Source: a bacterium (GTDB lineage: Bacteria > Krumholzibacteriota > Krumholzibacteriia > G020349025). From it: DNA of 64,000 nucleotides. Under the pieces are notes generated by a model that was given only the letters and a program-made list of their open reading frames with translations, made no database searches and was not told the DNA's origin. The position numbers and the translations under genes are program-made. The DNA lies in assembly GCA_031362565.1 (NCBI GenBank), contig JANLSU010000120.1, positions 96,001 to 160,000 on the forward strand, given 5' to 3'. Position 1 is the stretch's first letter. Each line of letters opens with the position of its first letter. This document shows, piece by piece, positions 49,938 to 52,334 of the stretch.

Positions 49938-51095
49938 TCAGAGAGTGCCGGCCTGCAAGGTGGCGCAAAACTCCCCGAAGGGCAGAACTTCGATTCCATC
50001 GCGCGTCTTCAACCGATCCTTGCCGGTGTAGACAAGCAGGCTGCGACGTACGCCGGGAAGCACCTTGAAGGCACGCAGTCCCTTGCACATCCCGTCCGAG
50101 AACTTGCTCGACGATTTCACCTCGATCGCGACAATTTCCTTCCCCCGGACGAGTACGAAATCGACTTCGATCGCGACGGAATCGCTCGACGCCCAGTAGA
50201 AGATTCCATCGTAGAGCCGGCGGTAGGCGTTGTACGCCCGTAGCACGGTAAAGACATACCCCTCGAAGAGCCGGCCGGCTTCCTCGCGCGACGGCACGCC
50301 CCAGGATTGCATCGCAGCTCGAGCCAAGCCACAGTCGACCCAATACAGCTTGGGCAACGCGCGTTCGCGAAACCGCAGCTTGGCGTCGAACGCCGGGAGG
50401 CGCAGAGTAAGCAGAGTGTCCTCCAGAATCTCGAGGTATCCCTGCACCGTCGAGCGCGACACGCCAGCTTCGCGAGCGATATTGGAAGCGTTGATCACTT
50501 GCGCATGGGAGAGCGCCGCGACTGGGAAGAACCGTGAGAAGGCCGGCAGATTGCGCACCAGCGCTTCGGCCCGGATTTCCTCTTTGAGATACAGCTCGAC
50601 GTAGGCGCGAAGAGTCTCGTCCGGTTCATCCGCCGCAACGACCAGCGCAATCGACCCGTAGCGCAGCACCCGCGGCAAGCTGAAAGCCTCCCCGAGTTCG
50701 TTCGGAGTCAGGGGGAAGAGCTCGCGTTTCGCGGCGCGGCCCGCCAGCAGGTTCGTTCCGGCCAACTTGAGTTTGCGAGCGCTCGAACCCAGCAGCGCAA
50801 AGCGCTGTTTGCGATCTTCGATCGCCCGGTGCACTTCGTTCAGAAGGTTGGGCAGGCGCTGGATCTCATCGACAACGATCGTGGCCCCGGCCCGCTCGGC
50901 ATTCAGTTTCAGCGCGAAGAGTTCAGGGTTGGACAAATAGCTCTGGAACACCTGCTCATCGAGCAGGTCGATACGTGTCGCGTTCGGGAAGGTCTCACGC
51001 GCGACGGTGCTCTTGCCGACTCCACGCACCCCCAAGAGGAAGAAGCTGCCCTTGGGCGGCGCGAAGAGGCGCTTGAAAACTGGCCTGCTCACCAT
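49938..51095 (-). CDS. AAA+ ATPase (AAA_14 plus DUF4143)
   Basis: GVRGVGKS Walker A, VVDEIQR Walker B, LGSSA, LAGRA, PKLYWVDCG and EVDFV...IEVK motifs. Confidence 0.9.
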   Translation of the reverse strand: MVSRPVFKRLFAPPKGSFFLLGVRGVGKSTVARETFPNATRIDLLDEQVFQSYLSNPELFALKLNAERAGATIVVDEIQRLPNLLNEVHRAIEDRKQRFALLGSSARKLKLAGTNLLAGRAAKRELFPLTPNELGEAFSLPRVLRYGSIALVVAADEPDETLRAYVELYLKEEIRAEALVRNLPAFSRFFPVAALSHAQVINASNIAREAGVSRSTVQGYLEILEDTLLTLRLPAFDAKLRFRERALPKLYWVDCGLARAAMQSWGVPSREEAGRLFEGYVFTVLRAYNAYRRLYDGIFYWASSDSVAIEVDFVLVRGKEIVAIEVKSSSKFSDGMCKGLRAFKVLPGVRRSLLVYTGKDRLKTRDGIEVLPFGEFCATLQAGTL

Positions 51096-51267
51096 GTCGG
51101 CATTTTACGGCGAAAAACGCCGACAAGCTAGACGATTTTTGGAGGTCCACCCCGGGCAGCGCCTGGCACCCACGGCCTACCGACATTGCCGTCCGCGCGG
51201 CCCGCGGCCCTAGAGCGGCAGCGAATCCGTGGAAGTGGAGGTCCCCGCGTGAGTATCGAACCCAACT

Positions 51268-51301
51268 AAAGAGGGCCCCGCGGCTTGCGCCGCGAGGCCC
51301 C
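51268..51301 (-). terminator. Rho-independent terminator of the candidate RNA
   Basis: GGGCCTCGCGGC-GCAA-GCCGCGGGGCCC followed by TCTTT, with a GNRA tetraloop on the minus strand. Confidence 0.75.
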
Positions 51302-51388
51302 ACGGAATGAGGTCCAGTGTCGACGGCGGTGGGTACCCAAGTAGTTGGGGAAAACCCGCCTAAACGCCATGAACGCTGGGGCTCCCTG

Positions 51389-51433
51389 CTACAGGGCCGC
51401 CACCTCCACTGAGCCGCATCGGTCTAAACTCAC
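51389..51433 (-). CDS. Putative 14-aa peptide MSLDRCGSVEVAAL
   Basis: GTG start 7 nt after the GGAGG core of AGGAGGTGATCCA, with TAG stop at 51389-51391. Confidence 0.4.
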   Translation of the reverse strand: MSLDRCGSVEVAAL

Positions 51434-51560
51434 TGGATCACCTCCTCGATCGCCCTACCCAAATCGGCGGGACCCAACCCACCCAGTTCCTCGAGCCGGG
51501 CTCGCTGTCGGAACCGTCACGGTGCCGCGCGGGCAGCCCGTGAGTTTTGTATCGAGATCG

Positions 51561-51569
51561 AGTCTAGCA
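51561..51569 (-). promoter_or_regulatory. Extended -10 element TGcTAGACT
   Basis: Lies just upstream of the first hairpin of the candidate RNA. No strong -35. Confidence 0.5.
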
Positions 51570-51713
51570 AGAATCAACTCGGGACTCCACAACCGGAAAA
51601 GCACCCGGCTCGCCCGGCGCCCCGGCACCCTGCCCCTCCCCCCTTGGCCTGGACGGCCGCCTGCACCATCCTCCACGGGCCCTTGATCGGTCGCCCCCAC
51701 GAAGGAGAATTCC

Positions 51714-52334
51714 ATGCGGTTCCAGTCACGCCACGGGTTCTGTGTCATCGTGTTGGCCCTGGGTTGCTCGAGCGCCGCTTTGGCCCAGGACAAGCCTGCA
51801 CAAGCGCCGCCCATGAGCGCCGAGGAACAGGCGATGCAGGCGAAGTGGATGGCGTTCATGACCCCGGGCGCGGAACACCAGATCCTGGCCGGCCGGGTTG
51901 GAATGTGGAACTCGAAGGTCACCATTTGGGAGGCGCCGGGTGCACCACCGGTTTCCGAAATGTCGAAAACCGAGGTGAAGGCCATTTTCGACGGCCGTTA
52001 CTTCGAAGACACGACCACCGGCAACTTCATGGGGATGCCGTTCAACGGCCGCGCACTCATGGGCTACGACAACCTGAAGAAGAAATTCTTCACTACCTGG
52101 ATCGACAACATGGGCACGGGCATGATGGTCGCCGAGGGCACGTACGACGCCGCGACCAAGACCATTACTTTCGCGGGCGACCATCCTGACATCATGGCCG
52201 GCAAGTACCGCCCGTCCAAGTCGACCGAAAAGTGGGTCAGCGCCGACGAGTGGCAGATGGAGATGTTCAATCAGGGACCCGACGGCAAGTCCTGGTGGAA
52301 GTGCATGGAGATCGTGTACACGCGCGCCAAGTGA
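51714..52334 (+). CDS. DUF1579 domain protein, secreted
   Basis: Signal peptide, TPGAEH..L...G.W and GYDNLKKKF..TWIDNMGTG motifs. Confidence 0.88.
   Translation: MRFQSRHGFCVIVLALGCSSAALAQDKPAQAPPMSAEEQAMQAKWMAFMTPGAEHQILAGRVGMWNSKVTIWEAPGAPPVSEMSKTEVKAIFDGRYFEDTTTGNFMGMPFNGRALMGYDNLKKKFFTTWIDNMGTGMMVAEGTYDAATKTITFAGDHPDIMAGKYRPSKSTEKWVSADEWQMEMFNQGPDGKSWWKCMEIVYTRAK

Follow-up and report, generated by a model that had tools for sequence, protein, structure and literature searches.

An intergenic gap in a bacterial genome of the lineage Krumholzibacteriota raises the question of what an RNA does when it places an exact complement of the 16S ribosomal RNA (rRNA) tail directly in front of a 14-codon reading frame. 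The gap is in a 64,000-nucleotide (nt) stretch of contig JANLSU010000120.1 (assembly GCA_031362565.1, positions 96,001 to 160,000), which is called the window here and supplies all coordinates below. The predicted RNA is encoded on the minus strand at 51265..51553. It is about 290 nt long, with a predicted 5' end and a 3' end at the U-tract of a terminator, and homology with relatives covers the whole of it. In minus-strand order, the locus contains an extended -10-like site, three hairpins, a linker with AGGAGGTGATCCAG, a GTG frame, a multi-stem domain, and a terminator. We put the probability at about 60% that this is an independently transcribed, single-copy mini-messenger RNA (mini-mRNA) that works like the rre type of alpha-proteobacteria. 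The proposal is drawn by analogy and concerns the way of working; membership by descent is not claimed.

The most telling element is the 14-nt sequence AGGAGGTGATCCAG (51433..51446, minus strand), a super Shine-Dalgarno (SD) sequence. It is the exact complement of the genome's own 16S gene end, ...GCGGCTGGATCACCTCCTTTCT, and the start codon begins with the last G of the 14-mer. The initial annotation had reported this complement from general knowledge of the 16S terminus and had called it much longer than the other ribosome-binding sites noticed in the window. Only two sites in the whole 5.4-Mb genome contain at least 13 nt of exact complement to the tail, the rRNA gene and the RNA locus, and the 12-mer core likewise occurs only at these two. 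When up to two mismatches were allowed, the 14-mer had 2 matches in the window, with 0.27 expected. The second match (AGCAGGTGTTCCAG, with two mismatches) is at 50943-50956 on the minus strand, inside an ATPase gene, and is chance-like, since 3 of 100 shuffles also gave two matches. Genome-wide SD usage, scored by a first-start heuristic over 9155 long open reading frames, was the same as at random positions; it was uninformative and was not used.

The complement is kept among relatives. Of 99 relative sequences, 66 have the 12-mer as AGGAGGTGATCC; the most frequent departure from it, AGGAGGTGGTCC (14 sequences), keeps the pairing through G.U. Non-consensus bases fill 45 of 1080 cells of the 12-mer. 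Of these, 31 can still pair with the tail by wobble; the other 14 cannot, and one misaligned row accounts for several of them. The core is near-invariant, though the scan that found 75 of the relatives left the 12-mer out of its pattern. Over 90 aligned sequences, the Watson-Crick run was 14 nt in 22 and 15 nt in 29 (14 to 15 nt in 51/90), with a maximum of 17. It reached 16 to 17 nt in 6 of them, and 63 had at least 16 nt with G.U allowed. The range in relatives is 12 to 17 nt.

Relatives were retrieved in three ways. A DNA search gave matches in 24 of 61 related genomes, the host genome included, with one copy in the host. A pattern built from the 3' domain only, with the SD motif excluded, retrieved at least 119 loci from named public genomes. 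Among the 119 matches listed, 75 fit the full-length profile of the first 24 sequences (E <= 3.3e-26). The other 44 listed loci, from actinomycetes and others, had no profile match and were dropped as chance. The record labels of the 75 were mostly Candidatus Krumholzibacteriia or -ota; the others among them were Latescibacteria, 'uncultured Fibrobacteraceae', Gemmatimonadota, Eiseniibacteriota, Thermoanaerobaculia, Vicinamibacteria, and Acidobacteriota. Such labels on metagenome-assembled genomes are unreliable.

The third search used a covariance model of the part from the SD sequence to helix P4 (68 sequences, 140 positions). In the host's own phylum, it detected the RNA in 81 of 151 genomes (64/117 of high quality). 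By family, the counts were 45/61 in f2, 14/17 in f4, 8/10 in f5, 7/9 in f6, 4/9 in f8, 2/4 in f1, 0/33 in f3, 0/6 in f7, and 0/1 in f9. Each genome of the phylum with the RNA had one match, save one genome with two. The RNA was also found in 26 of 151 genomes of a second phylum, that of the record labeled Thermoanaerobaculia, and a third, small phylum had it in 7 of 10 genomes. The search for homologues that the initial annotation had proposed has thus returned relatives from three phyla.

The alignment supports a structured RNA with a covarying 5' domain (P1, P2/P2a, and P3), a 3' four-way junction, and a terminator. It was made with MAFFT from 90 distinct sequences, after removal of 9 duplicates. 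The proposed structure paired 85.9% of the cells, compared with 79.6% in shuffles, and none of 500 shuffles reached any of five measures. Pairing dropped to 42-47% when the partners were slid. Folding of the minus strand at the locus gave a z score of -3.26 against shuffles, and the opposite strand gave -2.03.

The 5' domain contains the hairpins seen in the initial annotation, and their counterparts in relatives covary. P1 (TCACGG..CCGTGA) is at 51517..51543. Its equivalents covary in 24 relatives (UA 9 / CG 9; AU 11 / GC 10); it was 66.7% paired in the 90-sequence alignment, where it aligns poorly. P2 (CGGTTCC/GGAACTG) encloses the inner hairpin P2a (CGAGC/GCTCG) at 51484..51516. P2 was 94.2% paired, with two-sided changes at 6 of 7 pairs. 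P2a was 91.8% paired, and its columns 77/88 contained GC in 49 sequences, AU in 22, and CG in 4. P3 is a G-rich hairpin with a conserved TGGG-containing loop at 51466..51483. It was 98.5% paired (columns 105/115, AU 65 and GC 25), and the loop G's are invariant.

A linker (51447..51465) joins the 5' domain to the SD sequence. In relatives it carries CGCCC a few bases before the SD sequence, and this motif is a possible pseudoknot partner of the P2a loop (UGGGC). The pairing (columns 82-86 with 135-139) was 95.8% complete. Compensatory changes were few (AU 2, CG 1), with GAGCG/CGCTC in addition in two second-phylum loci. The pseudoknot is doubtful in the window's own RNA, where the linker reads ...GGGC... 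and the complement would be shifted by one base and overlap the P2a stem.

The 3' four-way junction (51314..51412) is closed by P4 and P5 and holds P6, P7, and P8. P4 pairs 51412-51407 with 51319-51314 and was 88.4% paired, with compensatory changes (columns 223/338, AU 35 and GC 22). Its 3' strand, CACTGGACCTC, pairs with TCAGTG inside the frame, at codons 7 to 9. P5 (GGTGGCGG/CCGCCGTC; 51404-51397 with 51329-51322) was 99.3% paired, also with compensatory changes, and the second GGAGGTG of the locus belongs to it. Inner P8 was 88.9% paired; P6, P7, and outer P8 were poorly aligned by MAFFT (58-75% paired). The multibranch domain of the initial annotation is recognizable in this junction. Its stems CCCTG/CAGGG and CCCAA/TTGGG are present in the window, and its third helix, CGAT.GCGG/CCGC.GTCG, is better read as P5.

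The same annotation had closed the domain with a long-range helix between CACTGGACCTC and GAGG(tga)TCCAGTG, which would bury both the SD sequence and the start codon. This helix can be drawn in the window. It was 61.6% paired in the 90 relatives, a value equaled by 196 of 500 shuffles, and had no covariation; the strand belongs to P4. Other partners that would sequester the SD sequence were also considered. Nested folding gave several, which were mutually inconsistent and are not claimed. A duplex-energy test pointed to the 5' side of P8 (alignment columns 286-301; window 51357-51347). At this place, GGGATCACCCC stands in about 12 of the 90 aligned relatives; it copies GGATCACC of the 16S tail and is a perfect complement to their own SD sequence GGTGATCC. 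This copy is not claimed as an SD partner either. The motif is variable, the window RNA has GGGTTTTCCCC, and there was no covariation with the GGTGGTCC variants.

The fold-back bears on whether the RNA could be a type I toxin mRNA, locked by 5'-3' pairing and repressed by an antisense RNA. Type I toxin mRNAs, such as the hok-like and AapA1-like RNAs, are small structured mRNAs with a tiny frame, a 5'-3' fold-back, and a hydrophobic toxic peptide. The window RNA resembles them as a small structured mRNA with a tiny frame, and its sequence permits a fold-back that could occlude the SD sequence and start. It differs in having a short, charged peptide that is not hydrophobic and a fold-back that is not conserved, and its gene is single copy and vertically conserved. 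No antisense partner was seen, and a simple scan found no antisense promoter. The likeness to toxin mRNAs suggested at first does not survive these differences and the housekeeping-like conservation in three phyla. We regard a toxin mRNA as extremely improbable.

The short frame (MSLDRCGSVEVAAL; 51389..51433, minus strand) consists of GTG at 51433-51431, 13 further codons, and TAG at 51391-51389, as first annotated. It was compared in 101 sequences, namely the 90 aligned sequences and 11 of 12 second-phylum loci; L200 was dropped because it has the same frame as L199. All 101 contain a frame of 13 to 16 codons (13 in 4, 14 in 58, 15 in 38, and 16 in 1), so its length is conserved. The start codon is GTG in 89 and TTG in 12 and is never ATG. 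It begins 1 nt past the 12-mer in 92 of 101 sequences. The start is 26 nt from the P5 motif in 92 of 101 sequences and 23, 29, or 32 nt from it in 8; a single distance of 25 nt (L024) is an anchoring artefact of the search pattern. These spacings differ by multiples of 3, so the changes in frame length are all in threes. The frame crosses the 5' strands of P4, P5, and P6, and its stop codon sits in the P6 loop. The triloop in the window is TAG itself.

A conserved frame could mean that the 14-residue peptide is the product and that the RNA is a small structured mRNA whose domains tune stability and translation. The retention of the frame in every sequence and the changes in threes fit this reading. 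Residue 2 is mostly Ser, encoded by AGT or AGC here and by TCT or TCG in alpha-proteobacterial rre frames; its use of two codon classes points to selection at the amino-acid level. Two codons each serve for Asp at position 4 (GAC 37, GAT 22) and for Gly at position 7 (GGC 58, GGT 20). One alpha-proteobacterial frame (L225) shares its first 8 residues (MSSDLSGL) with one family member (L036), with near-identical bases from codon 3, which may be a trace of common descent. The RreB and RreR peptides are conserved within their own clades (PMC5711450). Against the peptide, codons 2, 3, 5, and 6 vary freely, with codon positions one and two as variable as position three. The conserved C-terminal half (..VEVAS..) overlaps P4-P6, its third positions are invariant too, and its conservation is explained by the RNA helices that cover it. 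A weak start behind an over-long SD sequence would be odd for a wanted product. Synthetic RreB and RreR peptides were unstructured, and a translation-supporting rreB derivative, with putative RreB overproduction, had no effect on growth (PMC5711450). We consider a peptide as the main product unlikely.

The locus looks like an independent transcription unit, as first annotated, judging from a promoter-like site, a terminator, and neighbors that vary between relatives. The extended -10-like element TGcTAGACT is at 51561..51569 on the minus strand and is plausible as read. A simple two-hexamer consensus scan found no promoter. A TAnnnT hexamer precedes P1 by 12-21 nt in 50 of 88 relatives, and a TTG -35-like site and a T-rich tract often accompany it. 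The intrinsic terminator (51265..51301) has a 13-bp stem (51301-51272), the GCAA loop noted at the outset, and a T-rich tail. In relatives its helix was 88.8% paired, with two-sided changes at all 10 pairs.

The host gap is 618 nt long and lies between a DUF4143/AAA_14 ATPase gene (ATG 51095) and a divergent DUF1579 gene (ATG 51714). With its short frame and terminator ahead of a gene in the same orientation, the RNA could be a cis-acting leader or attenuator of the ATPase gene (51095-49938). The surroundings argue strongly against a leader, which we consider very improbable. Different genes flank the RNA at the 24 loci, and the one downstream is often convergent and in many cases encoded on the opposite strand. 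In the window, the next start codon comes about 170 nt after the terminator, and no pairing that could act as an alternative anti-terminator was seen.

The neighboring genes were identified as follows. The downstream gene (49938-51095, minus strand) encodes a 385-aa ATPase with AAA_14 and DUF4143 domains. In the closest relatives (L009, L010, and L012), an ATP-dependent DNA ligase gene takes its place. The divergent neighbor (51714-52334, plus strand) encodes a DUF1579 protein (E 6.7e-40) and has a GAAGGAG ribosome-binding site 7 nt before its ATG. A protein-coding reading of the region itself was rejected. The open reading frames at 51345-51686 (plus), 51455-51985 (minus), and 50995-51303 (minus) had no Pfam match.

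Parts of the stretch were present in seven metatranscriptome runs. Contigs from four runs of four studies were compared and were 95-99% alike to the window RNA. Three of them are wholly within the predicted RNA, at 51309-51507 (197 nt), 51314-51520 (205 nt), and 51362-51531 (178 nt). The contigs leave the terminator and the outermost 5' end uncovered.

The working of the RNA can be proposed from rreB of Bradyrhizobium and the Bradyrhizobiaceae. The available text describes rreB as a 165-nt mRNA with a 17-nt SD sequence, including the G of GTG, and a 14-codon frame; the SD sequence is 8 nt from the 5' end (PMC5711450). By experiment, rreB binds 30S ribosomal subunits strongly: it co-sediments with 30S and is located mainly on these subunits (PMC5711450). 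Its translation is weak because of the long SD sequence and the GTG, and exchanging the start codon for a stop raised its half-life from 10 to 37 min (PMC5711450). By analogy, capture of the 30S subunit by the window RNA is a reasonable inference. The initial annotation had suggested a conditional capture. A long complement before a tiny frame and the behavior of rreB are consistent with the capture; the lock that would make it conditional, the fold-back, is the part that is not conserved.

If the window RNA works like the rre type, it would dock tightly on the 30S subunit through an SD helix that spans nearly all of the free 16S tail. Initiation and clearance would be slowed by the excess length of this helix and by the non-ATG start, and translation would be weak. 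An elongating ribosome would have to unzip the 3' junction (P4-P6). The 5' strands of P4, P5, and P6 are part of the frame, so translation and the folded junction would be mutually exclusive. The fate of the RNA would be decided by ribosome engagement, and the RNA would be a ribosome-operated switch or timer. Its output may be the peptide, a role of the folded junction, or, as for rreB, RNA turnover.

Several points weigh against this reading. The 30S binding, the weak translation, and the ribosome-dependent turnover are transferred from a distant analogue. A 14-nt rreB complement bound ribosomes much less well than the 17-nt one (PMC5711450), and the window has 14 nt. Nested thermodynamic folding gives the 12-mer a probability of being unpaired of 0.32, with an inconsistent partner; the bases just before it have 0.74-0.8. 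The first six codons of the frame are without third-position periodicity, codons 2, 3, 5, and 6 are free to vary, and the last codons are confounded by P4-P6, so the peptide sequence says little for translation. The other two frames also often meet a stop within 57 nt (79/101 and 75/101). The covariance-model search found the RNA in none of the 33 f3 genomes and none of the 6 f7 genomes of the host phylum, and so the RNA is not universally required. The 16S tail is identical in three relatives checked, one carrier and one complete-looking genome each from f3 and f7, so the missing RNA is not explained there by a changed anti-SD sequence. Contigs of close relatives in RNA libraries are no proof of transcription and give a weak hint of an abundant small transcript. 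A fourth contig, of 266 nt and depth 60 (run X13), matches 51422-51548, and its further 139 nt, past the predicted 5' end, are unlike the window. The transcript may start further upstream in that relative, or the contig may be chimeric.

A last alternative is a ribosome-binding RNA without a coding role, which would need no translation; it would serve as a 30S-associated factor or as a sponge or decoy for the 16S tail. The length and conservation of the complement far exceed the needs of initiation. Elaborate conserved domains stand on either side of it, the RNA has a housekeeping-like single-copy distribution in three phyla, and the rreB precedent is itself found mainly on 30S subunits. A non-coding RNA leaves the start at a fixed distance, the frame length, and the indels in threes unexplained. 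A single gene copy faces thousands of ribosomes, and titration is unlikely unless the RNA is extremely abundant. A 20-fold overproduction of the ribosome-binding rreB left growth unchanged (PMC5711450), which weakens the sponge proposed in the initial annotation. We judge a purely non-coding role improbable, to the same degree as the peptide.

The rre-style design is known; the larger RNA, its two covarying domains, and its presence in three other phyla are new. The part of the literature that was searched contained nothing on such an RNA outside the alpha-proteobacteria, and rreB and rreR only in Hahn et al. 2016. Later papers citing Hahn et al. 2016 in this literature were from the same laboratory and, judged by their titles, on other topics. 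A search there for small RNAs in Krumholzibacteri gave no paper with the taxon among the matches listed. Mini-mRNAs with an SD sequence to the full tail were described once before, in alpha-proteobacteria (PMC5711450). The shared design has a complement of 12-17 nt, followed 1 nt later by a start other than ATG, and a tiny junction-invading frame, within a larger covarying RNA. Its occurrence in three unrelated, largely uncultured phyla means that this ribosome-binding design is ancient or repeatedly selected. The family is a second and structurally richer one, with more than 100 sequences, and allows comparative and structural study of an over-strong SD helix in regulation.

The initial annotation could not place the RNA in a known family. 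For Rfam this was right, since a search of the window and 16 relatives' loci found no family at threshold. In a wider sense it was not, because a published class of this kind exists in rre. The best sub-threshold Rfam match was RF01867, the Caulobacter small RNA CC2171, with 24.2 bits against a cutoff of 75 (E 0.0055 to 0.0089). The window RNA aligns to it only at the AGGAGGUGAUCCAGUG SD/start segment and at the terminator. The CC2171 consensus also holds AGGAGGUGAUCCAGUG, then a multi-stem domain closed by a helix inside the frame, and then a terminator. A 17.8-bit match to BjrC68 (RF02353) was to the terminator only and was set aside, and none of 151 alpha-proteobacterial genomes reached the cutoff of that family. 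The window RNA also resembles transfer-messenger RNA (tmRNA) as a structured RNA with a short internal frame and a stop codon in a hairpin loop. It has its own SD sequence and GTG and no tRNA-like domain, and ARAGORN finds the single tmRNA of the genome elsewhere.

RNAs like CC2171 were found in 14 of 81 alpha-proteobacterial genomes at E <= 0.001, 2 of them above the cutoff. The CC2171-type pattern occurs in 48 of 301 alpha-proteobacterial genomes, and a reversed control gave 0. All members begin with CAACAA..GAAAGGAGGTGATCC, followed by 1 nt and the start codon, and encode MS.. frames. They differ from the window RNA in that the frames are mostly of 18-35 codons, the start is often ATG, and there is no 5' domain. 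The window-family model gave 13-24 bits on 34 alpha-proteobacterial loci, from the SD/start segment alone. Several of these RNAs carry GTGGAGCA(G/A)CC near the end of the frame, which is reminiscent of AGTGGAGGTGGCG in the window family. In three alpha-proteobacterial loci (L173, L236, and L237), the same super-SD sequence precedes frames of 49-56 codons with a signal-peptide-like hydrophobic N terminus, so this ribosome-binding design is not limited to tiny frames. The CC2171-like RNAs are evidently rre genes of the Caulobacterales/Rhizobiales type and the alpha-proteobacterial form of the design; the link is ours, as the available text of PMC5711450 does not mention CC2171.

The comparison with rreB and rreR was made by their published description (PMC5711450). 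Like them, the window RNA is predicted to be a small stand-alone transcript with its own promoter and terminator. The first base of GTG is also the last base of its complement to the 16S tail (AGGAGGTGATCCA-G|TG). Its frame is tiny, with 14 codons, compared with 14 in rreB and 18 in rreR of Rhodobacter/Roseobacter (PMC5711450), and its genomic context is not conserved outside close kin. It differs in distribution, since the window type occurs in three other phyla and rre-like genes are reported, in the available text, only from Caulobacterales, Rhizobiales, Rhodobacterales, and Rhodospirillales, with a role given as unknown (PMC5711450). It also differs in size and build. The window RNA is about 290 nt long, with a structured domain of about 100 nt before the SD sequence and a four-way junction after it, and rreB has 165 nt. 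With 14 nt in the window (relatives have 12-17), the complement is shorter than the 16-17 nt of rre. As a tentative suggestion with rather long odds against it, the window RNA and the alpha-proteobacterial rre/CC2171 RNAs might be divergent members of one ancient and widespread ribosome-docking class. The entire tail would be a landing pad and the token frame a release, and the structured domains, in the window family a pseudoknotted 5' domain and the four-way junction, would contact the 30S subunit or a partner and report on or regulate the free-subunit pool. If so, the locus would be a new housekeeping ribosome-associated RNA and not a peptide gene.

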